Origin: Alphaproteobacteria bacterium
Lineage (GTDB): Bacteria; Pseudomonadota; Alphaproteobacteria; MPNO01
Direction of reading: 5' to 3'
Assembly (NCBI GenBank): GCA_965117055.1
Contig: OZ220750.1
Location: 4,271,977 to 4,335,976, forward strand
DNA length: 64,000 nt
Part shown: piece by piece, positions 7,006-50,332 of the stretch
How the letters are laid out: every line of letters begins with the position of its first letter
How positions within the stretch are numbered: position 1 is the stretch's first letter
The notes under the pieces: generated by a model
What the model saw: the letters and a program-made list of their open reading frames with translations, nothing else
Told to the model about the DNA's origin: nothing
Databases searched by the model: none
Translations under genes and position numbers: made by a program

Positions 7006-8198
7006 TGCTACTCGATGATCTGTGCGACGACGCCGGCGCCGACGGTGCGCCCGCCCTCGCGGATCGCGAACCGCAGACCCTCGTCCATCGCGATGGGCAC
7101 GATCAGCTCGACGTCCATCGAGACGTTGTCCCCCGGCATCACCATCTCCGTCCCCTCCGGCAACGCAACCTGGCCCGTCACGTCCGTCGTCCGGAAGTAA
7201 AACTGCGGACGGTAGTTCGAGAAGAACGGCGTGTGACGGCCCCCCTCCTCCTTGGTCAGAATGTACGCCTCCGCCTTGAACTTCGTGTGCGGCGTGATCG
7301 AACCCGGACGCGCCAATACCTGGCCGCGCTCCACCTCGGTCCGCCCGACCCCGCGCAGCAGGCAGCCCACATTGTCCCCAGCCTCGCCGCTGTCCAGAAG
7401 CTTGCGGAACATCTCCACGCCCGTAACCACCGTCTTCGAGGTCTCCTTCAACCCGACGATCTCGACCTCCTCGCCGACATTGATCGTCCCCCGCTCGATC
7501 CGGCCCGTCACAACCGTCCCACGCCCCGATATCGAGAACACGTCCTCGATCGGCATCAGAAACGCCATGTCCTTCGGGCGGTCCGGCTGAGGAACGTAAT
7601 CGTCAACCGCCGTCATCAGCTCCAGCACCGAACCCGTCGCCGCCGGACCCTCGCCGCCCTCCAGAGCCTGAAGCGCCGAGCCCCGCACCACCGGAATGTC
7701 GTCGCCCGGGAAGTCGTAGCTCGACAGCAACTCCCGGACCTCAAGCTCTACCAGATCCAGAATCTCCTCGTCGTCCACCTGGTCCACCTTGTTCATGTAG
7801 ACCACGATCGCCGGAACCCCCACCTGGCGCGCCAGCAGGATGTGCTCCCGGGTCTGCGGCATCGGGCCGTCCGCCGCCGACACCACCAGGATCGCACCGT
7901 CCATCTGAGCCGCCCCGGTGATCATGTTCTTCACGTAGTCCGCGTGACCCGGGCAATCCACGTGCGCGTAGTGGCGCGCGCCGGTCTCGTACTCGACATG
8001 CGCCGTCGCGATGGTGATCCCCCGCGCCTTCTCCTCCGGCGCCTTGTCGATCTGGTCGTAGGACGTGAACTCCGCCCCGCCGGCCTCCGCCAGAACCTTG
8101 GTGATCGCCGCCGTCAGCGTCGTCTTGCCGTGATCGACATGCCCGATCGTCCCCACATTGCAGTGCGGCTTCGTACGCTCGAACCTAGCCTTCGCCAT
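7006..8198. repeat. Duplicated tuf segment, copy 1 (about 1.19 kb, near-identical to 23309-24501)
   Basis: Identity starts 2-3 nt beyond the tuf stop and ends exactly at the start codon. One synonymous difference was noticed. Confidence 0.9.
7008..8198 (-). CDS. tuf: Elongation factor Tu, copy 1
   Basis: 396 aa [35 protein letters not shown]... with GTPase motifs; located between fusA and rpsJ. Confidence 0.97.
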
Positions 8199-23200: not shown

Positions 23201-23276
23201 TGGCAGGAGTGGAGGGATTCGAACCCCCAACCCCCGGTTTTGGAGACCGGTGCTCTGCCAATTGAGCTACACTCCT
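23201..23276 (-). tRNA. trpT: tRNA-Trp (anticodon CCA)
   Basis: Reverse complement gives AGGAGTGTAGCTCAATTGGCAGAGCACCGGTCTCCAAAACCGG...TCGAATCCCTCCACTCCTGCCA. It has a cloverleaf, the anticodon loop CTCCAAA and an encoded CCA. Confidence 0.9.
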
Positions 23277-23308: not shown

Positions 23309-24501
23309 TGCTACTCGATGATCTGTGCGACGACGCCGGCGCCGACGGTGCGCCCGCCCTCGCGGATCGCGAACCGCAGACCCTCGTCCATCGCGATGGG
23401 CACGATCAGCTCGACGTCCATCGAGACGTTGTCCCCCGGCATCACCATCTCCGTCCCCTCCGGCAACGCAACCTGGCCCGTCACGTCCGTCGTCCGGAAG
23501 TAGAACTGCGGACGGTAGTTCGAGAAGAACGGCGTGTGACGGCCCCCCTCCTCCTTGGTCAGAATGTACGCCTCCGCCTTGAACTTCGTGTGCGGCGTGA
23601 TCGAACCCGGACGCGCCAATACCTGGCCGCGCTCCACCTCGGTCCGCCCGACCCCGCGCAGCAGGCAGCCCACATTGTCCCCAGCCTCGCCGCTGTCCAG
23701 AAGCTTGCGGAACATCTCCACGCCCGTAACCACCGTCTTCGAGGTCTCCTTCAACCCGACGATCTCGACCTCCTCGCCGACATTGATCGTCCCCCGCTCG
23801 ATCCGGCCCGTCACAACCGTCCCACGCCCCGATATCGAGAACACGTCCTCGATCGGCATCAGAAACGCCATGTCCTTCGGGCGGTCCGGCTGAGGAACGT
23901 AATCGTCAACCGCCGTCATCAGCTCCAGCACCGAACCCGTCGCCGCCGGACCCTCGCCGCCCTCCAGAGCCTGAAGCGCCGAGCCCCGCACCACCGGAAT
24001 GTCGTCGCCCGGGAAGTCGTAGCTCGACAGCAACTCCCGGACCTCAAGCTCTACCAGATCCAGAATCTCCTCGTCGTCCACCTGGTCCACCTTGTTCATG
24101 TAGACCACGATCGCCGGAACCCCCACCTGGCGCGCCAGCAGGATGTGCTCCCGGGTCTGCGGCATCGGGCCGTCCGCCGCCGACACCACCAGGATCGCAC
24201 CGTCCATCTGAGCCGCCCCGGTGATCATGTTCTTCACGTAGTCCGCGTGACCCGGGCAATCCACGTGCGCGTAGTGGCGCGCGCCGGTCTCGTACTCGAC
24301 ATGCGCCGTCGCGATGGTGATCCCCCGCGCCTTCTCCTCCGGCGCCTTGTCGATCTGGTCGTAGGACGTGAACTCCGCCCCGCCGGCCTCCGCCAGAACC
24401 TTGGTGATCGCCGCCGTCAGCGTCGTCTTGCCGTGATCGACATGCCCGATCGTCCCCACATTGCAGTGCGGCTTCGTACGCTCGAACCTAGCCTTCGCCA
24501 T
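23309..24501. repeat. Duplicated tuf segment, copy 2
   Basis: See copy 1. The flanks are unique (tRNA-Trp on one side, tRNA-Gly on the other). Confidence 0.9.
23311..24501 (-). CDS. tuf: Elongation factor Tu, copy 2 (protein identical to copy 1)
   Basis: The same 396-aa translation as copy 1. The nucleotide sequence is near-identical from 23309 to 24501, with one synonymous TTT/TTC difference noticed. The listed ORF N-terminal extension is an artefact. Confidence 0.97.
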
Positions 24502-24565: not shown

Positions 24566-24639
24566 TGGAGCGGGTGATGGGAATCGAACCCACACAACCA
24601 GCTTGGAAGGCTGGGGCTCTACCATTGAGCTACACCCGC
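24566..24639 (-). tRNA. tRNA-Gly (anticodon TCC)
   Basis: RC is GCGGGTGTAGCTCAATGGTAGAGCCCCAGCCTTCCAAGCTGG...GGTTCGATTCCCATCACCCGCTCCA. It has a cloverleaf and the anticodon loop CTTCCAA. It sits upstream of tuf, as in the enterobacterial tufB tRNA cluster. Confidence 0.88.
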
Positions 24640-24732
24640 GCGAGGTTTCTGGGCCTTTCGCTGCAATGGCCGTTCGCTCCACCAAGACGCTCCGGATCCT
24701 CCGAGCCCGCCCGAGCACCGTCGCGGAGGGCT

Positions 24733-24817
24733 GGTGGAGGGGGTTGGATTCGAACCAACGTAGGCAAACGCCAACGGGTTTACAGCCCGTCCCCTTTAGC
24801 CACTCGGGCACCCCTCC
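24733..24817 (-). tRNA. tRNA-Tyr (anticodon GTA), type II with a long variable arm
   Basis: RC is GGAGGGGTGCCCGAGTGGCTAAAGGGGACGGGCTGTAAACCCGTTGGCGTTTGCCTACGTTGGTTCGAATCCAACCCCTCCACCA, with anticodon loop CTGTAAA. Confidence 0.88.
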
Positions 24818-38957: not shown

Positions 38958-40190
38958 ATGACCGACTGTTTCGACGCGCTCGAGACGCGCTCTCCCGACG
39001 AGCGGGAGGCCCGGCTGATGGAAGCGCTGCCCGGGCAGGTGGCGCGCGCCAGGGAGACCGCCGGTCAGGCGGAGGTCCTTTCCGGTATCGAACCCCGCGA
39101 CATCGCCAGCCGGGAAGCGCTCGCGGAACTCCCGGTCATCCGCAAGAGCGATCTGATGGAACGCCAGGCCGAGATGCCGCCCTTCGGCGGGCTCAACCGG
39201 CTTCCGGACGGGAAGCTGACCCGCCTGTTCCTGTCGCCGGGGCCGATCGCCGAACCGCAGGGAAGGCGCCCCGATTACTGGCGGATGGCCCGCGCGCTCT
39301 ACGCCGCCGGGTTCCGCGCCGGCGACATCGTGCTCAACTGCTTCTCCTACCACTTCACGCCGGCCGGCATGATGTTCGACGGCGCTGCGGCGGCGATCGG
39401 CTGTCCGGTGATTCCGGGCGGCACCGGCCAGACCGAGAGCCAGATCGAGGCGATCCGCCGCTTCCGGCCGGTCGGCTATGCCGGCACGCCCGATTTCCTG
39501 AAGATCATCCTCGACAAGGCGGACGAGACCGGCGCCGACATCTCCTCGATCCGCCGCGGCGGGGTCGGCGGCGGCGCCCTACTGCCGCCGCTCCGCAAGG
39601 AATACGACGACCGCGGCATCGCCGTTCTGCAATCCTACGGCACCGCCGATGTCGGTCTGATCGCCTACGAGTCGGAGGCCCGGGAAGGCATGATCCTCGA
39701 CGAGGAGATCGTCGTCGAGATCGTCCGCCCGGGAACCGGAACCCCGGTGCCCGAAGGGGAAGTCGGCGAGGTTCTGGTCACGCTACTGGACGAGGACTAT
39801 CCGCTGCTCCGCTTCGCGACCGGCGACCTCTCCGCCATGATGCCGGGGCAGAGCCCGTGCGGCCGCACCGCGCCGCGCATCAAGGGATGGCTCGGCCGCG
39901 CCGACCAGCGGACCAAGATCCGCGGCATGTTCGTCGATCCCGCGCAGATCGACCGCGTCCTGGAACGCCACTCGGAGATCGGCCGGATGCGGCTTATCGT
40001 CAACGAGGAGGGCGGCATCGACGCTCCGGTTCTCCAGTGCGAGACCGGCGGCGGCCCGGAAGACCTCGCCGACGCCGTGGCCGGGACGTTCCGGTCCGAA
40101 TGCAAGTTGCGGGTCGCGGTCGAGCTCGTCGACGCCGGCAGCCTGCCGAACGACGGCAAGGTGATCGACGACCGGCGCGATTACGGCTGA
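38958..40190 (+). CDS. Phenylacetate-CoA ligase family protein (PaaK-like / coenzyme F390 synthetase-like adenylate-forming enzyme)
   Basis: 410 aa. PaaK-type features: NCFSYHFTPAGMMFDGAAAAIGCPVIPGGTGQTESQIEAI, GTPDFL and a C-terminal ACT-like part. Confidence 0.8.
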   Translation: MTDCFDALETRSPDEREARLMEALPGQVARARETAGQAEVLSGIEPRDIASREALAELPVIRKSDLMERQAEMPPFGGLNRLPDGKLTRLFLSPGPIAEPQGRRPDYWRMARALYAAGFRAGDIVLNCFSYHFTPAGMMFDGAAAAIGCPVIPGGTGQTESQIEAIRRFRPVGYAGTPDFLKIILDKADETGADISSIRRGGVGGGALLPPLRKEYDDRGIAVLQSYGTADVGLIAYESEAREGMILDEEIVVEIVRPGTGTPVPEGEVGEVLVTLLDEDYPLLRFATGDLSAMMPGQSPCGRTAPRIKGWLGRADQRTKIRGMFVDPAQIDRVLERHSEIGRMRLIVNEEGGIDAPVLQCETGGGPEDLADAVAGTFRSECKLRVAVELVDAGSLPNDGKVIDDRRDYG

Positions 40191-41452
40191 CCGTCCGGGG
40201 CCGCGCGGGCGGGCTCCGGTTCGCGCAGCGGACCGCCGCCCAGCGTCAGAGACAACAGGACGATTCCGACGATCATCAGCGTCCCGGCGCTCAGGCCGAG
40301 CGACCAGTGGATGCCGATCAGGCTGCCGCCGAAGCCGACGGTGATGCCGCTGAAGGAGCGCAGGCCGAGCGAGGCCATGTTGTAGAGCCCGACCACACGG
40401 CCGCGGATCGCCTCCGGCGCGTTGAGCTGCACCAGCGTCATCGCCATCGAGTTGTAGGAAAGATCGAGAAAACCCGCGGCGAACAGCAGCCCGAGTGCCA
40501 GCGTGTAGTTCTCCGAAGATGCGAAGCCCGCGATCGCGCAGCACCAGAGGACCACCAGGATGAAGGCGGTCCGGGGGCGCGCGCTCAGCAGTCCCCGGCT
40601 CTCCAGGACGAACCCGGCCATCAGCGCCCCGGCCGCGGTGGCGGCGAGCAGGGCGCTGTAGTGCAGGCCGTCGTCGTGTCCCAGATGGTGCGCGAATTCC
40701 GGCATCTGCGCCTGGTGCGCGTTGCCGACCAGGAACGCGGCGCAACCGGCCAGGACGATCATCGAGACGATGGTGCGGTCGGAAGCGATGTCGCGCAGCG
40801 TCGCGAGGATTTCGGCGAAACCCGCGAACGCGCGTCCGGGCGGGCGCGGGCCGGAGCGGAACGCGGGCCCGTACGGCGCCTTCCACAGCCACAGCGCCAG
40901 CGGCAGGTAGATCAGGACGTTCAGCAGGATGCCCCAGGCCGGTCCGAGGGCGATCATCAACGCGCCGCCCACCGCCGGCCCGAGCAGGATGCCGAGCTGC
41001 CGCCCCGACGCGATCGTCCGGACCGCGCTCTGGAGCTGGGCGGCCCCGACGATGTCGTGGACCAGGAGCTGCGCCGCGGGCGCCCAGATCACGCCTGCGA
41101 AGCCGTGCAGGATCAGGAGCACGACGGCATGCCACATCTCGAGCGAATCGGTCAGGAACAGGATGCCCCAGCCGGACGAGACGACCATGAACAGGACCAT
41201 GCCGAACTGGATGATCCGGCGCGGGTCGAACCGGTCGGCGAGCGCGCCGGCATAGACCGAGAACAGCAGGAACGGCACCCAGTGGGAAAACACCGCGAAG
41301 CCGGCGAGCGCGGGCGATTCGAACTTCTGGAAGATGATCCAGTAGCTGATCACGTGCTCGATATTGTCCGCCATCATGGCGAGCATCGCGAAACTCAGAT
41401 AGGCGCGCCCGCCGGGATGGCGAAGCGCCGCGAAGGATCGTGGTTCAGTCAT
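40181..41452 (-). CDS. MFS transporter (EntS/YbdA-like efflux family)
   Basis: 423 aa with 12 predicted TM helices and an MFS signature around GALADRFDPRRI. Confidence 0.8.
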   Translation of the reverse strand: MTEPRSFAALRHPGGRAYLSFAMLAMMADNIEHVISYWIIFQKFESPALAGFAVFSHWVPFLLFSVYAGALADRFDPRRIIQFGMVLFMVVSSGWGILFLTDSLEMWHAVVLLILHGFAGVIWAPAAQLLVHDIVGAAQLQSAVRTIASGRQLGILLGPAVGGALMIALGPAWGILLNVLIYLPLALWLWKAPYGPAFRSGPRPPGRAFAGFAEILATLRDIASDRTIVSMIVLAGCAAFLVGNAHQAQMPEFAHHLGHDDGLHYSALLAATAAGALMAGFVLESRGLLSARPRTAFILVVLWCCAIAGFASSENYTLALGLLFAAGFLDLSYNSMAMTLVQLNAPEAIRGRVVGLYNMASLGLRSFSGITVGFGGSLIGIHWSLGLSAGTLMIVGIVLLSLTLGGGPLREPEPARAAPDGQP

Positions 41453-41494
41453 TCATGTTTCCTGGGCATTTTCCGACCTGACCGGGTCGCGGCG

Positions 41495-41632
41495 GTCCCG
41501 TACCGTCCTCCCCCTCACCCCGGCCCTCTCCCCGCCGGGGAGAGGGAGAGTAACGGCACCCACCGCGCCTTACTTCTCCCCTCCCGCTGGCGGGAGGGGC
41601 CGGGGGAGGGTGGAGCTACGCGGTACGGACCC
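41495..41632. repeat. GC-rich double-hairpin repeat element, copy A (REP/MITE-like)
   Basis: Terminal inverted repeats (GGTCCCGTACCG ... CGGTACGGACC) enclose two perfect 10-bp-stem hairpins, CCCTCTCCCC-GCCG-GGGGAGAGGG and CCCCTCCCGC-TGG-GCGGGAGGGG. It is about 75-80% identical to the reverse complement of copy B. Confidence 0.6.
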
Positions 41633-41664
41633 GATAGATAGGCGACAGGTTACGGCCAAACCGC

Positions 41665-42969
41665 TCAGCGGATCATCGATTCCGGCAGGAACAGGGCGAT
41701 GTCCGGAAACGCGATCAGCAGGGCGGTGCAGATCAGCATCGCCCCCCAGAAGGGGATGATGCCGCGGAATATCTCGCCCATCGGCACGCCCTCGGCGATC
41801 CCCTTGACCACGAACACGTTGAGCCCGAGCGGCGGGCTGATCAGGCTCATCTCCAGGATCACCACCAGGAGCGCGCCGAACCAGATCGGGTCGTAGCCCA
41901 TGTCCTTGATCAGCGGGAACACGATCGGCAGCGTCAGCACCATCATCGCGAGCCCTTCGAGGAAGGTGCCGAGCACGATGTAGCCGATCACTATGACGAT
42001 CAGCACCGCCACCGGAGCCAGATCGAGCCCCGGCATCGCGGCCGCGAGCTTGGCCGGGATCTGGGTGACGGCGAGGAACGGGTTGAACAGGAAGGCGCCG
42101 ATCACGATCAGGTAGACGAAGGCGAAGGTCTTGACCGTCTCCAGAATGCAGAACTTGAGCACGCCGAGGGTGAGCCTTCCGCGGACCACGGTGAGGACGA
42201 AGGTGAGGAACGCGCCGACCGCCGCCGCCTCAACCGGCGTGAAGACGCCGAGATAGATCCCGCCGAGAACCGCGAACACGATGCCGATCAGCGAGAACGA
42301 ACGGCCCACCATGCGCGCGCGTTCCCGCCACGGCAGCCGCTCCGCCTTGGGCCCGATCGCCGGGTTGAGACGGGTCAGGATGGCGATCGTCACCATGAAC
42401 AGGCCGGTGAGCAGGATGCCGGGCAGCACGCCGGCCAGGAAGAGCTGGCCGATCGATTCCTCGGTCAAGAGCGCGTAGATGATGAACCCGGTCGAGGGCG
42501 GTATCAGGATGCCCAGCGTGCCGCCCGCCGCCACGCAGCCGGTGGCGAGGCGCGGGTGGTAGTCGTGGCGCTTCATCTCCGGCAGCGCGACCCGCCCCAT
42601 CGTGACCGCCGAGGCGAGGCTCGATCCGGAGACCGCCGCGAACCCGGCGCAGCCGACCACGGTCGCCGACGCCAGCCCGCCCGGCCAGTGCCCGACCAGG
42701 CTGCGCGCCATGTCGTAGAGGTCGCGGCTCATCCCCGACACCATCGCGAAGTTTCCCATCAGCACGAACAGCGCGATGATGCTGAGGTCGTAGTTGTAGG
42801 CGATCTCGAACGGAACGCTGCCGAGCAGCGCCAGCGTCGGGTCGAGCCCGCTCAGCGCCCAGTAGCCGAGCGCGCCAGCGATCGCCAGCGCGATACCGAT
42901 CGGCACGCGCAGGAAGATCAGCAGGAACAGCCCCGCGAGACCGAGAATGCCGACGAGGGTGGGGCTCAC
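41665..42969 (-). CDS. dctM: TRAP transporter large permease (DctM family), GTG start overlapping the dctQ stop
   Basis: The conserved DctM N-terminus SPTLVGILGLAGLFLLIFLRVPIGIALAIAG follows a GTG that overlaps the dctQ TGA (GTGA). The gene is 434 aa. The 532-aa listed ORF is over-extended. Confidence 0.88.
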   Translation of the reverse strand: MSPTLVGILGLAGLFLLIFLRVPIGIALAIAGALGYWALSGLDPTLALLGSVPFEIAYNYDLSIIALFVLMGNFAMVSGMSRDLYDMARSLVGHWPGGLASATVVGCAGFAAVSGSSLASAVTMGRVALPEMKRHDYHPRLATGCVAAGGTLGILIPPSTGFIIYALLTEESIGQLFLAGVLPGILLTGLFMVTIAILTRLNPAIGPKAERLPWRERARMVGRSFSLIGIVFAVLGGIYLGVFTPVEAAAVGAFLTFVLTVVRGRLTLGVLKFCILETVKTFAFVYLIVIGAFLFNPFLAVTQIPAKLAAAMPGLDLAPVAVLIVIVIGYIVLGTFLEGLAMMVLTLPIVFPLIKDMGYDPIWFGALLVVILEMSLISPPLGLNVFVVKGIAEGVPMGEIFRGIIPFWGAMLICTALLIAFPDIALFLPESMIR

Positions 42970-43472
42970 GCCGCTTCGTCGCTTTCCGGCCCGGGCACGA
43001 AGATGCGGATCGCCAGCACGAGAGCCATCGACCCGGCGCCGAACGCCACCACCCAGTAGAACGGAAAGAACGGGATCGTCAGCAGCTGGGAAGCCTCGGC
43101 GAATTCGCGCACGTCGACCGACTGGACCACCGCGCGCCACGCGATCAGGGCGAACATGGCGCAACCGAACAGATTGATCGCGGGGTCGAGGACACGCTGC
43201 ACGCCCCGGCCGAGCCGGTTGTAGAGCAGCTCGATGACCACATGCGCCCCGCGCCACGCGCAATAGGCGAAGCCCAGAAAAGTCATGATCAGAACCGCGA
43301 ACTGGGTGAGGTCGAAGACCCCGGTAATCGGCGCGTTGAAGAAGTAGCGGCCGACCACGTCCGCCGTGGTCAGCAACATGAGAAGGAAGAGAACGGCCCC
43401 GGCGATATACGCCGAGGCCGTGACCAGGATGCCGACGGCCCGGGAGACCGGACCCTCGCGAGAGTCCATCAA
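42966..43472 (-). CDS. dctQ: TRAP transporter small permease (DctQ family)
   Basis: 168 aa with four TM helices and a DctQ-like profile. Its start overlaps the dctP stop. Confidence 0.85.
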   Translation of the reverse strand: MMDSREGPVSRAVGILVTASAYIAGAVLFLLMLLTTADVVGRYFFNAPITGVFDLTQFAVLIMTFLGFAYCAWRGAHVVIELLYNRLGRGVQRVLDPAINLFGCAMFALIAWRAVVQSVDVREFAEASQLLTIPFFPFYWVVAFGAGSMALVLAIRIFVPGPESDEAA

Positions 43473-44506
43473 CCCTTGGCCAGGTAGTCGGCGAGCATCT
43501 GCTTATAGGTCGGGTCCGATTTCCCGTAGCGCTTGACCCAGTCAGCGACGATGGTCTTGAAGCGCGCGGTCCAGGCCGCCTTGTCGGCCGCGCTCAACTC
43601 GGTGATGTTGGTGTCTTCCCGGGTCCGCACCGTCTTGAGGCCCGCCGCGCGCGCTGCCTCGTAGAGCTTGGCGCCCTTGAGGCTGAGCGGCAGGCCGCGC
43701 TGGGCGTCGACGGCCTTCTTCTGGTCGGCGGAAAGGCCCGCATAGGTCTTCTTGTTCATCACCATCATCTGCGGCGAATAGCCCATCGGCAGGTCGACGA
43801 TGAAGTTCTTGACCACCTCGGCCAGCTTGAAACTGTTCACGGTCGAGATGCCTACCAGCGCGCCGTCGACCACACCCTTCTCGATCGCGCTGTAGGTCTG
43901 CGGCATCGGCATCCCGACGGGGATCGCGCCCAGCCCCTTGATGATCGCCGCCTGGTCGCGCGACGGCGTCCTGAGCTTCATGCCCTTGAGGTCGTCTGGG
44001 GTGCGGACGACCTTGTTGGTCATCAGCACCGGAACGTCGGTGGTCCAGAGCCCGAGAACCTCGACGCGCGCGTACTCGGACGAGAGGTGCTTGTCGAAGA
44101 TCTTCCACATCGCCGTGGTCGCCTCGGTGGGCGAGCCCCATTGCAGCGGAATTTCCACCACCATGGTCTTCGGGAACACCGTCGAGGTGTAGCCCTGCAG
44201 CCCGAACTCGATGTCGGCGATGCCGTTGACCACCCGCTTGAAGGCGCCGGGCGGCTTGCCGCCGATCTGCCCGCCGGGGAAACCGACCACCTTCAGGCCG
44301 ACATTCGCCGCCGCGATGCCCTTGCCCCAGGGCGTCATCAGCTTGGCCCAGACATGGTGCTTGGGGCTGGTGAAGAACGCCATCTTCAGGTCGCGCGCCT
44401 CTGCCTGCGAGACCCAGCTCGCGCCGGCGAGAACCGCCCCGGCCACGCCGAGCGCGGTCAGCCCCTTCAACACCGAACGCAACGAAACCCTCATGTGTCC
44501 ATGCAT
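43469..44506 (-). CDS. dctP: TRAP transporter substrate-binding protein (DctP family)
   Basis: Start at MHGHMRVSLRSVLKGLTALGVAGAVLAGASW (signal peptide; GGGGAGGG SD). The longer listed ORF reads through repeat copy B. Confidence 0.88.
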   Translation of the reverse strand: MHGHMRVSLRSVLKGLTALGVAGAVLAGASWVSQAEARDLKMAFFTSPKHHVWAKLMTPWGKGIAAANVGLKVVGFPGGQIGGKPPGAFKRVVNGIADIEFGLQGYTSTVFPKTMVVEIPLQWGSPTEATTAMWKIFDKHLSSEYARVEVLGLWTTDVPVLMTNKVVRTPDDLKGMKLRTPSRDQAAIIKGLGAIPVGMPMPQTYSAIEKGVVDGALVGISTVNSFKLAEVVKNFIVDLPMGYSPQMMVMNKKTYAGLSADQKKAVDAQRGLPLSLKGAKLYEAARAAGLKTVRTREDTNITELSAADKAAWTARFKTIVADWVKRYGKSDPTYKQMLADYLAKG

Positions 44507-44619
44507 CGCTATTCCCTCCCCGATAGGAGCCTTGTCGCCCTTCGACGGGCGCCACAGCTGAGGCGATTCTACGGGGGGAGACCGTCCGGGTGTCAAGCGC
44601 AAGCGCGCTTGTGCCGGGT

Positions 44620-44730
44620 CGCCACCCTCCCCCAACCCCTCCCGCAAGCGGGAGGGGCGAAGATAAGGAAGAGTCGGCGCGCTAATCCCCTCTCCCCCGC
44701 GGGGGAGAGGGTCAGGGTGAGGGGGGTCTC
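44620..44730. repeat. GC-rich double-hairpin repeat element, copy B (inverted relative to copy A)
   Basis: Contains CCCCTCCCGC-AAG-CGGGAGGGG and CCCCTCTCCCCC-GCG-GGGGGAGAGGG hairpins. Its reverse complement aligns with copy A over about 110 bp. It overlaps the last few codons of the dehydrogenase gene. Confidence 0.6.
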
Positions 44731-45650
44731 TGCGCCAACGGTCGGGCGGCGGCGCCGTCCGCCTCTTCGCCCAGCGCGAGGCGGCGGAGCGCGGCCCCGA
44801 CATTCACCACGTCCTCGTTGCCGTAACCCATCAGCGTCGCCAGCTGGTAGGTCTCGCGGGTCGCGTTGGAAAGCAGCGACGGCGATTTCGTGTCGGCCGC
44901 GAGCTTGGCGAACAGCGAAACGTCCTTGAGCGCGATTTCGGTCGCGAAGAAAGGTCCGTCCTCGCCGGTGACGATCCGCCTGGACAGCGCGCCCAGCGCC
45001 GCGCTGTTCGACGTGCTGTTGGAAAGCACGTCGAGCAGCCGGTCGAGATCGACCCCGAGCTTGGCCGCCAGCGCGAAGGTCTCGGCATACATCGCATGGA
45101 TGCAGAGCCCGTTGACGTTGTTCAGAATCTTGAAGATGTGGCCGGTCCCCACCGGACCGCAATGCACGAAACGCTCGGAAACCGCCTCGAAGGCGGGACG
45201 GCAGCGCTCGACGATGTCCTCGGACCCGCCGACCAGAAGCACGATCTGCCCCTCCCAGGCGTGCTGCTCCATGCGCAGCATTGGCGCGTCGATGACGTGC
45301 ACCGAACGCGCCTCGGCCTCGGCGGCCAGCTCTCGGGTCACCGCGGGATCGCTCGTCGAGAAGTCGATCAGCACCGAATCCTGGCGCGCGTTGGCGATCA
45401 GCCCGTCGGGACCCTGGTACACCGCCCTGATCGCATCGATGCTTTGCAGACAGGTGCCGATCGTCCCGGTTGCCGCGCACAGCCCGGCGAGCCCGTTGGC
45501 CGGCTTCGCCCCCATGCCGACGGCGCGGTCGACCGCCGACGCGTCGATGTCGTGAACCGAGAGCTCGAAACCCTTCCTGAGAAGGTTGCGCGCGAGCCCC
45601 TTGCCCATGGTCCCGGCGCCGACCAGCCCGAAGCTGCGTTCCACCGTCAT
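44712..45650 (-). CDS. NAD(P)-dependent beta-hydroxyacid dehydrogenase (3-hydroxyisobutyrate dehydrogenase / tartronate-semialdehyde reductase family)
   Basis: Rossmann N-terminus FGLVGAGTMGKGLARNLLRKGFELSVHD and a HIBADH-type C-terminal domain. The start is ATG at 45650 or GTG at 45644 just after a GGGAGG SD. Confidence 0.82.
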   Translation of the reverse strand: MTVERSFGLVGAGTMGKGLARNLLRKGFELSVHDIDASAVDRAVGMGAKPANGLAGLCAATGTIGTCLQSIDAIRAVYQGPDGLIANARQDSVLIDFSTSDPAVTRELAAEAEARSVHVIDAPMLRMEQHAWEGQIVLLVGGSEDIVERCRPAFEAVSERFVHCGPVGTGHIFKILNNVNGLCIHAMYAETFALAAKLGVDLDRLLDVLSNSTSNSAALGALSRRIVTGEDGPFFATEIALKDVSLFAKLAADTKSPSLLSNATRETYQLATLMGYGNEDVVNVGAALRRLALGEEADGAAARPLAQRPPSP

Positions 45651-45661
45651 CCTCCCTGCGA

Positions 45662-47170
45662 TCACTCGGCGGCCCGATCTTCGGCCGCCGGCGGGCGCCA
45701 GCGCAAGACCGGGCGGCGCGCGGCCGCGGTCTCGTCGAAACGGCGGCGCGGCGCCTCGCCGGGCGCGGCGTGGAACGCGTGGGCCTCGCCCGCAAGCGCC
45801 CGCTCGGCGATGCGCCGCAGCGTCGCGATCAGGTGATCGAGGCTTTCCTTCGACTCCGTTTCGGTGGGCTCCAGGAGAAGCGCGCCATGCACCACCAGCG
45901 GGAAGTAGATCGTCGCGGGATGGTATCCCTCGTCGATCATCGCCTTGGCGAGGTCGAGCGTGGTGACGCCGGTGTCCTTGAGGAACGCGTCGTCGAACAG
46001 GACCTCGTGCATGCAGGGACCGTCATAGGGAAGGCTCATCAGATCGCAGAGCCCGGCCGAGACGTAGTTGGCGTTCAGCACCGCGTCCGAAGAAGCCTGG
46101 TTCAGGCCATCGATGCCGTGGCTCAGAATGTAGGCGAGCGCGCGGACGAACATCCCCATCTGGCCGTGGAAGCCCTTCACCCGGCCGAACGAGGTCCCCG
46201 AAGCGTCGCTCTCGACCAGCCGCAGCCCGTCCGGCCCCTGCGCTACATACGGCACCGGCGCGAAAGGAGCGAGCGCTTCGCAGAGCGCGATCGGGCCGCT
46301 GCCCGGCCCGCCGCCGCCATGCGGCGTGGAGAATGTCTTGTGCAGGTTGAGATGCATGCAGTCGATGCCGAGATCGCCCGGCCGAACCCGGCCAACGATG
46401 GCGTTGAAGTTGGCGCCGTCGCAATAGAAATAGGCGCCCGCGTCGTGGACCGCTTCGGCCTGTTCCAGGATCTCGTCCTCGAACAGCCCGCAGGTATTCG
46501 GGTTGGTCAGCATGAAGGCGGCGACGCCGTCGTCGAGCGCCGATTTGAGCGCCTCCAGGTCGACCCGTCCCCGCGCGTTCAACGGCACCGCCGCGACTTC
46601 GTAACCGCACATCGCGGCGCTCGCCGGGTTGGTGCCGTGCGCGGAATCGGGCACCAGCACGCGCTTGCGCGCATCGCCCGCCGCCTCGTGGGCCGAGCGG
46701 ATCGTCATCAGCCCGGTCCATTCGCCGTGCGCGCCGGCGGCGGGGGAAAGGGCGATCGCCGGCATCCCGGTAAGGGCCCTCAGCCAGTCCGAAAGCCGCT
46801 CCATCAGCGCGAGCGCGCCCTGCACGGTGGACTCGGGTTGGAGCGGATGGATGTCGGCGAACCCCGGCAGGCGCGCGAGCTTCTCGTTGAGCCTGGGGTT
46901 GTGCTTCATCGTGCATGAGCCCAGCGGGTAAAGCCCGGAATCGATCGCGTAGTTCTTCTGGCTGAGCCGTGTGAAGTGGCGCACGACCTGCGGCTCGGAG
47001 AGACCCGGCAGACCGATCGGCGCCTTCCGGGCCAGCCCGCCGAGACGATCCTTCATGTCCGGCGCATCGGGCAGATCGACGCCGGTTCTGCCCTCGGCGC
47101 CCTGCTCGAAGATCAGCGGCTCCTCGAAGCGGAGTCCGCGATGGCGGATAGCCTCCATCCCAGTGCTCAT
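45662..47170 (-). CDS. gcvPB: Glycine dehydrogenase (decarboxylating) subunit 2 (P-protein C-terminal half)
   Basis: Start [24 protein letters not shown]... (ATGA overlap with the gcvPA stop). It has the PLP-binding motif HLNLHKTF. The listed 811-aa ORF is over-extended. Confidence 0.93.
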
Positions 47171-50040: not shown

Positions 50041-50265
50041 CGACAGACAGCACGCGCGCGCGATGCGCCGCGCGCCCCCTCTGTCTGTGGACCTGAGAGA
50101 ATCACGGAACCCGCCGGTTCCGCTTACCCCTTCGGTGGAACCGCTCCCCTGTGGACGGAGCGGCCCGCTTTCCAGAGACACATCGACCTGCGGTCCGTTT
50201 GCCTGAGAGTTTCCGGGGCCCTTGCTCCTTCGGCGCCGGTCGTGAACCGGACTCTCCCGCAGGCG
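50041..50265 (-). promoter_or_regulatory. Tandem glycine riboswitch (two aptamers plus expression-platform hairpin) in the gcvT leader
   Basis: On the minus-strand transcript, aptamer 1 reads CUGCGGGAGAGUCC...CGCCGAAGGAGCAA...CUCAGGCAAACGGACCGCAGG and aptamer 2 reads CUCUGGAAAG...ACCGAAGGGGUAA...CUCAGGUCCACAGACAG. A GC hairpin follows (ACAGACAGAGGGGGCGCGCG...CGCGCGCGUGCUGUCUGU) directly before GGAGG-N5-AUG of gcvT. Confidence 0.8.
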
Positions 50266-50332
50266 TCTTCTGTGTAGCGCAGCGTCCGGCCCGAGCCGGA
50301 CAGGTTTTATCTAATGAGCCGGCAAATCCGCG

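Follow-up and report, generated by a model that had tools for sequence, protein, structure and literature searches.

The question raised by this locus is why a dctPQM operon, encoding a TRAP (tripartite ATP-independent periplasmic) transporter, is bracketed by two inverted copies of a GC-rich double-hairpin repeat. The locus lies in a 64,000-nucleotide stretch of an alphaproteobacterial genome (contig OZ220750.1, positions 4,271,977 to 4,335,976 of the forward strand), referred to here as the window, in which copy A stands downstream of dctM and copy B upstream of dctP. An initial annotation had described the repeats as REP-like (repetitive extragenic palindromic) or MITE-like (miniature inverted-repeat transposable element), and had proposed that they act as bidirectional terminators or insulators, that they stabilise mRNA, or that they belong to a composite structure which mobilised dctPQM. 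The repeats are ordinary copies, and new members, of the known BoxC/PIT (potential intrastrand triplex)/triplex-motif family. Very probably they are independent copies of this dispersed, non-coding element, placed at plastic junctions, and form neither a mobile unit nor a device of the operon; this reading is carried by family identity, dispersal, the separate origin of A and B and local rearrangement, all of which are observed.

Both repeats are present where they had been reported, inverted relative to each other, and each has a core of 102 bp. The alignment of A, B and 9 further full-length copies places the element ends at CCCCCTCACCC... and ...GGGGGAGGGYGG. Each core is an inverted pair of two different triplex motifs, whose G-rich third blocks point outward. 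The design of a half-element comprises a C-rich arm, a G-rich arm and a short loop, followed by a mirror-repeat G-rich block; the three blocks are CCCTCTCCCC / GGGGAGAGGG / GGGTGAGGGG in type 1 and CCCCTCCCGC / GCGGGAGGGG / GGGGAGGGTG in type 2, a variant labelled hp2. The two copies are laid out as follows.

41511..41612, plus strand: copy A core, 102 bp (nhmmer family-profile match; ends set by full-length alignment)
41512..41546, minus strand: TMECO/BoxC-type motif of copy A, CCCTCTCCC-CGGCG-GGGAGAGGG-CCG-GGGTGAGGG, an exact match to the published pattern; hairpin 41524-41546, third block 41511-41520, a 10/10 mirror of the purine arm
41578..41612, plus strand: variant hp2 motif of copy A, CCCCTCCCGC-TG-GCGGGAGGGG-CCG-GGGGAGGGTG, with a perfect 10-bp stem; hairpin 41578-41599, third block 41603-41612, a 9/10 mirror
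41494..41505: left arm, GGTCCCGTACCG, of an inverted repeat that surrounds copy A and is specific to this locus; pairs with 41621-41631
41621..41631: right arm of the same inverted repeat, CGGTACGGACC
44623..44724, minus strand: copy B core, 102 bp, with the architecture of A, inverted (nhmmer, full-length alignment)
44688..44723, plus strand: TMECO/BoxC-type motif of copy B, CCCTCTCCC-CCGCGG-GGGAGAGGG-TCA-GGGTGAGGG, an exact pattern match; hairpin 44688-44711, third block 44715-44724, a 10/10 mirror, with the dehydrogenase stop inside
44623..44657, minus strand: hp2 motif of copy B; hairpin 44636-44657, third block 44623-44632 (mirror and perfect-hairpin scans)

The four hairpins are all perfect, with stems of 10, 10, 10 and 11 bp, which bears out the earlier description of two perfect 10-12-bp stems per copy, and they make up four of the nine perfect hairpins with a stem of at least 9 bp in the window. 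Their third blocks reach mirror scores of 10/10, 9/10, 9/10 and 10/10, as against scores of at least 85% in 1.9% of control positions. Between A and reverse-complemented B, the mean column identity is 79% over the spans used originally, within the 75-80% then reported, and 73% over the 102-bp cores with gaps counted; the sub-blocks that match best span 41 nt (90%) and 46 nt (76%), with a blastn-short E of 5e-9. No third copy was found in the window by blastn-short or with the nhmmer profile.

Holder et al. 2015 describe this three-block design as the 'intrastrand triplex motif', which goes by the older names of BoxC and PIT (PMC4666352). The published TMECO pattern, CCCTCNCCC-N3-6-GGGNGAGGG-N3-GGGNGAGGG (PMC4666352), is matched exactly at 41512-41546 (minus strand) and 44688-44723 (plus strand), with 0 matches in 100 shuffles. 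In E. coli, triplex motifs are always intergenic, lie on either strand and are often found as close inverted pairs of two motif types, type A and type B (PMC4666352). The window elements resemble them in their three blocks, in the exact pattern carried by one half, in their intergenic position and occurrence in both orientations, in the inverted pairing of mixed types and in local rearrangement; the inverted pair of a TMECO-type and an hp2-type half is common to both window copies and the 9 further full-length ones. They differ in that the partner half is the variant CCCCTCCCGC/GCGGGAGGGG, which lies outside the TMECO pattern, in that the host is an uncultured high-GC alphaproteobacterium, and in that the unit conserved across genomes is a fixed 102-bp doublet. 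Copy A had also been credited with a terminal inverted repeat, CCGTACCG/CGGTACGG (41498-41505 and 41621-41628). This pair falls outside the family consensus and is shared, in diverged form, with one orthologue only, that in the related locus L002, and therefore it is a feature of the locus and not of the element.

On single-stranded DNA or RNA, a half-element would fold into a 10-bp hairpin, and on DNA it could adopt an intrastrand purine-motif triplex, with the whole pair forming a long hairpin or cruciform. As a single strand, the E. coli motif forms a stable triplex in vitro, and this structure went undetected in vivo in E. coli (PMC4666352). ViennaRNA folding, which covers hairpins only, returns copy A as one long hairpin overall (RNA -111 kcal/mol, z -7.4; DNA z -5.7) and a weaker long-hairpin fold for copy B (z -2.2 for RNA, -1.9 for DNA). 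The G-rich arm together with the third block fits a G-quadruplex motif, e.g. GGGAGGGGCCGGGGGAGGG, at 41578-41612 (plus), 41511-41546 (minus), 44623-44657 (minus) and 44688-44724 (plus), so that hairpin, triplex and quadruplex would be competing folds of one strand. Papers retrieved with the literal stem sequences were solely eukaryotic G-quadruplex/Sp1 work. Searches of Rfam gave no family above threshold for either copy, and at E <= 1 they returned just hairpin-like noise, e.g. miRNA precursors. The type-1 motif at 41505-41548 (minus strand) gives a sub-threshold match to Rfam whalefall-1 (20.9 bits, against a cut-off of 37 bits), and this 'RNA motif', derived from metagenomes, may be a repeat of related type.

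The family is dispersed across many genomes. A 30-nt signature of the type-2 half was scanned against a species-representative genome collection, and it occurs in at least 113 genome stretches, mostly from Sphingomonadales, together with several uncultured alphaproteobacterial metagenome-assembled genomes (MAGs) and a Defluviicoccus MAG. The repeat-bearing relatives include the MAGs CBDBCA01, CBDBCV01 and CBDDOM01 besides the Defluviicoccus MAG, and related MAGs carry several copies apiece. The 11 full-length copies come from at least 6 genomes, at least 4 of which are other alphaproteobacterial genomes, and the full-length doublets in alphaproteobacterial MAGs are 83-86% identical over 104-117 nt. 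Every full-length copy immediately follows a stop codon, which it sometimes provides itself, and the gene pairs concerned are tandem or convergent. Matches in plasmids and chromids amount to 158 records with at most 15 places each, Sinorhizobium, Azospirillum, Rhizobium, Pantoea, Sphingomonas and Escherichia being among them; the type-2 signature is also found in 42 IMG/VR contigs, and with a 71-nt E. coli BoxC sequence as query, the median count across E. coli genomes is 17 places. With these stretches and plasmid records, in unrelated contexts, the repeat is a generic dispersed family, an outcome that the initial annotation had itself named as speaking against its proposals.

The separate origin of the two copies emerges from the surrounding genes. 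Read along the minus strand, the dehydrogenase gene is followed by copy B, dctP, dctQ, dctM, copy A and a gene for a major facilitator superfamily (MFS) transporter, with gene assignments from Pfam.

44712..45665, minus strand: NAD-binding dehydrogenase of the 3-hydroxyisobutyrate/6-phosphogluconate type
44566..44596, minus strand: promoter-like TTGACA-N19-TAGAAT upstream of dctP, recognised by sequence reading and conserved in L121
41665..44506, minus strand: TRAP cassette, with dctP at 43469-44506, dctQ at 42966-43472 and dctM at 41665-42969
40181..41452, minus strand: MFS transporter, downstream of copy A

Copy A occupies the slot between the dctM stop at 41665 and the MFS start at 41452, and copy B separates the 3' end of the dehydrogenase gene from the promoter region of dctP, as first described; the overlap of B with the last dehydrogenase codons is likewise confirmed, the stop codon lying inside the repeat. 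Copy B provides these last codons and the stop, the protein ending in ...ADGAAARPLAQRPPSP (also given as ...PPSP), and compared with its siblings, which end in ...GEEAEPER* or similar, it has about 13 additional residues in the C-terminal tail. Both this altered C-terminus and the proline/glycine-rich spurious open reading frames (ORFs) of the region are due to the BoxC/triplex-motif repeats.

Eleven related TRAP loci (L001-L004 and L118-L124) were obtained through DctP homologues and compared by blastn. In L002, L003, L120 and L122, a 1.3-kb segment with Meth_synt_2 lies between the dehydrogenase and dctP, and this junction carries no repeat; L119 has Meth_synt_2 upstream of dctP, again free of any repeat. 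In the window, 128 bp containing copy B (44619-44746) stand in for the 1.3-kb segment, with breakpoints at 44746/44619 by blastn against those four loci, and the original dehydrogenase stop is lost. Contig L121 starts inside the type-2 hairpin of a copy at the position of copy B, which is therefore not unique to the window. The slot downstream of dctM is just as variable.

Window: copy A followed by MFS
L002: an orthologue of copy A and a CGTC-tagged REP dimer of 158 bp, followed by MFS
L122: a CGTC-type dimer distinct from that of L002, followed by MFS
L003 and L118: Amidohydro_2 gene, then MFS
L121: AMP-binding gene directly after dctM; copy A and MFS absent

The same TRAP locus thus exists with neither copy (L003, L118-L120 and L122), which is the second outcome named beforehand as contradicting a link between repeats and operon, with copy A only (L002) and with copy B but not A (L121). 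At least 5 configurations occur at each junction, a figure counted without matched control junctions, while dctPQM is 86-93% identical. Triplex-motif loci of E. coli are reported to be rearranged more often between close strains (PMC4666352), and the plasticity of both junctions here matches that excess. The CGTC-tagged REP elements of the siblings are inverted dimers, e.g. CGTCATGGTCGGC-GAAG-GCCGACCATCCACG, at 11021-11180 in L002 and about 11100-11225 in L122; because they occur there, the dctM-MFS slot appears as one that collects several unrelated repeat families.

Copy B shares 84-86% identity with copies in other genomes but 73% with A, and A and B thus do not form a closest pair. Copy A is older than the split from L002, and copy B stands where the siblings hold another gene. 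These observations fit two independent insertions at two rearrangement-prone junctions. The promoter and dctPQM cassette also recurs in unrelated contexts in L001, L004 and L124, at 86-90% nucleotide identity and repeat-free at both ends. The TTGACA-N19-TAGAAT sequence is part of this cassette and not of the repeat, and was missed by a consensus promoter scan because of its 19-nt spacer. A palindrome, CAAGCGCGCTTGCGCTTG (sibling form CAAGCGCCGCCGCGCTTG), adjoins it (44566-44612, minus strand) and could, judging from its sequence, be a candidate operator for a regulator. The cassette begins about 95-115 bp ahead of dctP and ends 0-5 bp past the dctM stop, sharp boundaries that are shared in at least 5 genomic contexts (86-93% nucleotide identity).

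The divergence of A from B, the repeat-free sibling loci and the repeat-free cassettes elsewhere leave both the dedicated terminator or insulator and the composite transposon unsupported. It could still be argued that the hairpins, as terminators, insulators or mRNA-stabilising 3' structures, were selected for dctPQM expression, and this is the alternative that survives best, although it is unlikely. Both copies do lie at gene 3' ends in a co-directional row and would form very stable RNA hairpins, all other full-length copies are at gene 3' ends too, and E. coli REPs are described as able to serve as 3'UTR regulators. However, neither copy has a U-tract or a terminator-like call, G/C-rich sequence following each stem, and with respect to transcription the two have opposite orientations. 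The gene row is also maintained in close relatives that lack the copies, and no Rfam family is matched above threshold. An earlier study, cited in PMC4666352, saw no promoter or terminator activity of PIT/BoxC in E. coli. Intrinsic terminators were rejected as candidates at both copies, these being GC-rich stem-loops that lack the U-tract. Any protection of the 3' ends of dehydrogenase or dctPQM transcripts by the hairpins would be incidental.

A classical REP/REPIN origin, in which REP pairs are mobilised by RAYT, an IS200/IS605-like tyrosine transposase, is still less likely. REP, BIME (bacterial interspersed mosaic element) and REPIN systems with RAYT (PMC2817692, PMC3116915) share with the window elements short palindromes, inverted doublets that fold with their spacer as one long hairpin, and intergenic dispersal, and CGTC-tagged dimers do occupy the same slot in L002 and L122. 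Against this, the GTAG or CGTC tag by which REPs are defined (PMC3733652) is not conserved in the 11-copy alignment, for which reason membership in the tagged REPs was rejected, and the stems of the triplex motifs are polypyrimidine/polypurine, with a third mirror block. The CGTC-tagged alphaproteobacterial REPs (Di Nocera et al. 2013, PMC3733652) resemble the window elements in their inverted dimers and in the dctM-MFS slot of those two siblings, but their sequence, CGTCATGGTCGGC-GAAG-GCCGACCAT..., is unrelated, their stems are of mixed bases, a third block is lacking, and they are absent from the window. A crude check found no HUH-like small ORF beside the signature in 113 loci, the recurrent flanked gene being instead of the DUF559 family, and Holder et al. 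saw no transposase, integrase or other mobility function beside the E. coli motifs (PMC4666352). Of the REP/MITE-like label, the dispersed hairpin repeat stands; the REP tag is missing, and a crude check showed no consistent target-site duplication of the kind left by a MITE.

That the inverted copies are transposon-like ends which mobilised dctPQM is the least credible account: although they bracket the operon, and the cassette with its promoter occurs in at least 3 unrelated contexts (86-93% nucleotide identity) with homology ending just inside the repeats, the non-syntenic cassettes are repeat-free, syntenic siblings hold neither copy or a single one, A and B are further apart than B and the copies of other genomes, A predates the L002 split whereas B replaces a gene of the siblings, a crude check (its right-end pattern a few bases short) gave no consistent target-site duplication, and the Pfam survey of neighbouring genes gave no transposase. 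The candidates MITE and composite transposon were accordingly rejected, on the absence of a consistent flank duplication, the locus-specific nature of the CCGTACCG repeat and the repeat-free cassette elsewhere.

To our knowledge, no enzyme, mobility mechanism or function has been assigned to BoxC/PIT elements, which have been known since the 1990s. A candidate enzyme comes from the distribution of the signature. In sphingomonad loci, two inverted signature copies 370-470 bp apart enclose an ORF of about 144 aa, and this is a DUF559 protein (PF04480, E = 1e-37 to 1e-41). Of the families that recur among small ORFs beside the signature in the 113 loci, DUF559 is the largest, and all 8 DUF559 ORFs, located in 7 of these loci, are flanked by such hairpins, six by type 2 and two by type 1; in L084 the perfect hairpin is downstream only, with a weaker nhmmer match upstream. 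The DUF559 genes and loci are the following.

L012, 3850-4353: flanked DUF559 gene
L044, 3453-3912: flanked DUF559 gene
L066, 7205-7634: flanked DUF559 gene
L049, 3045-3543 and 5637-6074: two flanked DUF559 genes
L059, 5466-5960: flanked DUF559 gene
L125-L204: further, metagenomic DUF559 loci
L205, 4206-4761: further DUF559 locus, E. coli

In a reverse test, the best 80 metagenomic loci were chosen by DUF559 homology alone (44-65% identity to the query, GC 0.40-0.71), with a query alignment built from genes already known to adjoin the motif, and were scanned for perfect stems only. Hairpins with polypyrimidine/polypurine arms reach 3.64/kb within about 230 bp of DUF559 gene ends, as against 0.17/kb elsewhere in the same loci, a 21-fold difference, whereas other hairpins reach 0.45/kb near DUF559 and 0.26/kb elsewhere. 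Among the 69 loci with at least 120 bp on each side, 45 carry these hairpins both upstream and downstream of the gene, 20 on a single flank and 4 on neither; such a hairpin stands at the 3' end of 51/69 DUF559 genes, compared with 3/41 other genes in these loci. The upstream and downstream stem cores are the same in 36/49 loci (permuted mean 7.2, maximum 14), and the flanks are inverted repeats, because the informative loops are mostly reverse complements of each other. A mirror third block accompanies 67% of the DUF559-flanking hairpins, as against 1.9% of control positions, and is mostly found on that side of the hairpin which faces the gene. Flanks were usable in 68 loci, and these represent 47 different gene contexts; the type-2 group is sited at a conserved yqeY-dnaG position, and its cases are therefore not independent. 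Protein similarity also follows stem class (identity 0.554 vs 0.521, a small effect reached by 0/2000 permutations), a correlation that is not relied on, since shared ancestry could explain it.

In E. coli, the DUF559 gene ycjD shows a partial pattern: its product ends in ...RRSPSP* within a degenerate motif, and an exact TMECO motif lies about 170 bp downstream. The gene adjoins the first-described BoxC region. About 60 nt of the ycjD 3' end (GGAGACGGTGCTGGAGAATATTC...) are duplicated between the degenerate motif and the TMECO motif (NC_000913.3 1351200-1351430, L205), which points to duplication or repair having once taken place at the motif. The ycjD segment sits in the sapF-fabI slot, where other phylogroups hold the eefRABCD operon (PMC12817139).

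Among PDB entries, the DUF559 profile gives a match to 3hrl (E = 6e-35) and a weak one to 3r3p (E = 0.002), the catalytic domain of I-Bth0305I, a mobile-intron homing endonuclease grouped with the Vsr-like/EDxHD fold (PMC3424549). The motif-flanked DUF559 proteins thus resemble Vsr, I-Bth0305I and 3hrl, which offers a precedent for selfish use of the fold; they differ in having no intron or intein context, their tie to the repeats being one of genomic association. We know of no activity of DUF559, and a search of the accessible literature yielded no paper linking DUF559, YcjD or COG2852 to BoxC/triplex repeats.

Since its genes carry matching hairpins on both flanks, DUF559 is a candidate cognate nuclease of the triplex-motif family. 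We tentatively suggest that the BoxC/PIT repeats, the two in the window included, could be the terminal inverted repeats, together with gene-less derivatives, of a widespread selfish or domesticated element whose enzyme would be the DUF559 Vsr-like PD-(D/E)XK endonuclease; the case for this is appreciable, though short of persuasive. By analogy, the partnership may be RAYT-REPIN-like, on a different nuclease fold: in both, a small nuclease gene lies between two inverted cognate repeats, but the triplex motifs are without a GTAG/CGTC tag and the flanked gene is PD-(D/E)XK Vsr-like, not an HUH tyrosine transposase. Association alone is no proof that DUF559 acts on the repeats.

For the independent copies of a dispersed element that the window is very likely to hold, the model proposed is that such elements would settle in intergenic DNA at gene 3' ends and be gained, lost and replaced quickly. 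They would mark junctions at which adjacent DNA gets deleted or swapped, and the bracketing of dctPQM would represent two such junctions. The structure-prone doublets may provoke or attract breakage and repair, and so lead to the gene swaps observed. Their spread and maintenance may depend on a nuclease acting in trans, for which the DUF559 Vsr-like endonuclease is the best candidate, and nicking by DUF559 at the hairpin or triplex could yield both repeat spread and rearrangement hot spots.

Several points weigh against this explanation. Triplex formation in vivo is unsupported even for the E. coli triplex motifs (PMC4666352). Homology of the cassette to all sibling and non-syntenic loci ends at about 44600-44624 and 41660-41665, just inside both repeats, and the explanation does not account for these sharp shared boundaries. 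The source genome contributes two copies from the 64-kb window, the only part of it scanned, and tblastn found no DUF559 gene in the window or in those of the sibling TRAP loci and of the 8-kb loci from the nearest MAGs that were screened, later-added loci lying outside that screen.

For the window, the result is a clean annotation of two dispersed repeats, not TRAP operon regulators or transposon ends, and they draw attention to two junctions that are not stable between related genomes. The finding holds up but is of a familiar sort; what deserves further pursuit is the link to DUF559. This strong and specific genomic association extends across many taxa and contexts, E. coli ycjD included, and makes the question of the BoxC/PIT enzyme directly testable.

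Other features of the window concern neither repeat. The segments 7006-8164 and 23309-24467 are 100% identical at a distance of 16,303 bp, as reported in blocks of 300 nt and 54 nt; they probably represent a tuf duplication whose members gene conversion holds identical, and tRNA genes at 23204-23276 and 24569-24817 adjoin the second of them. A tandem glycine riboswitch (Rfam RF00504, 75 and 41 bits) is found at 50079-50269 on the minus strand, upstream of gcvT-gcvH-gcvP, the genes that precede the dehydrogenase.

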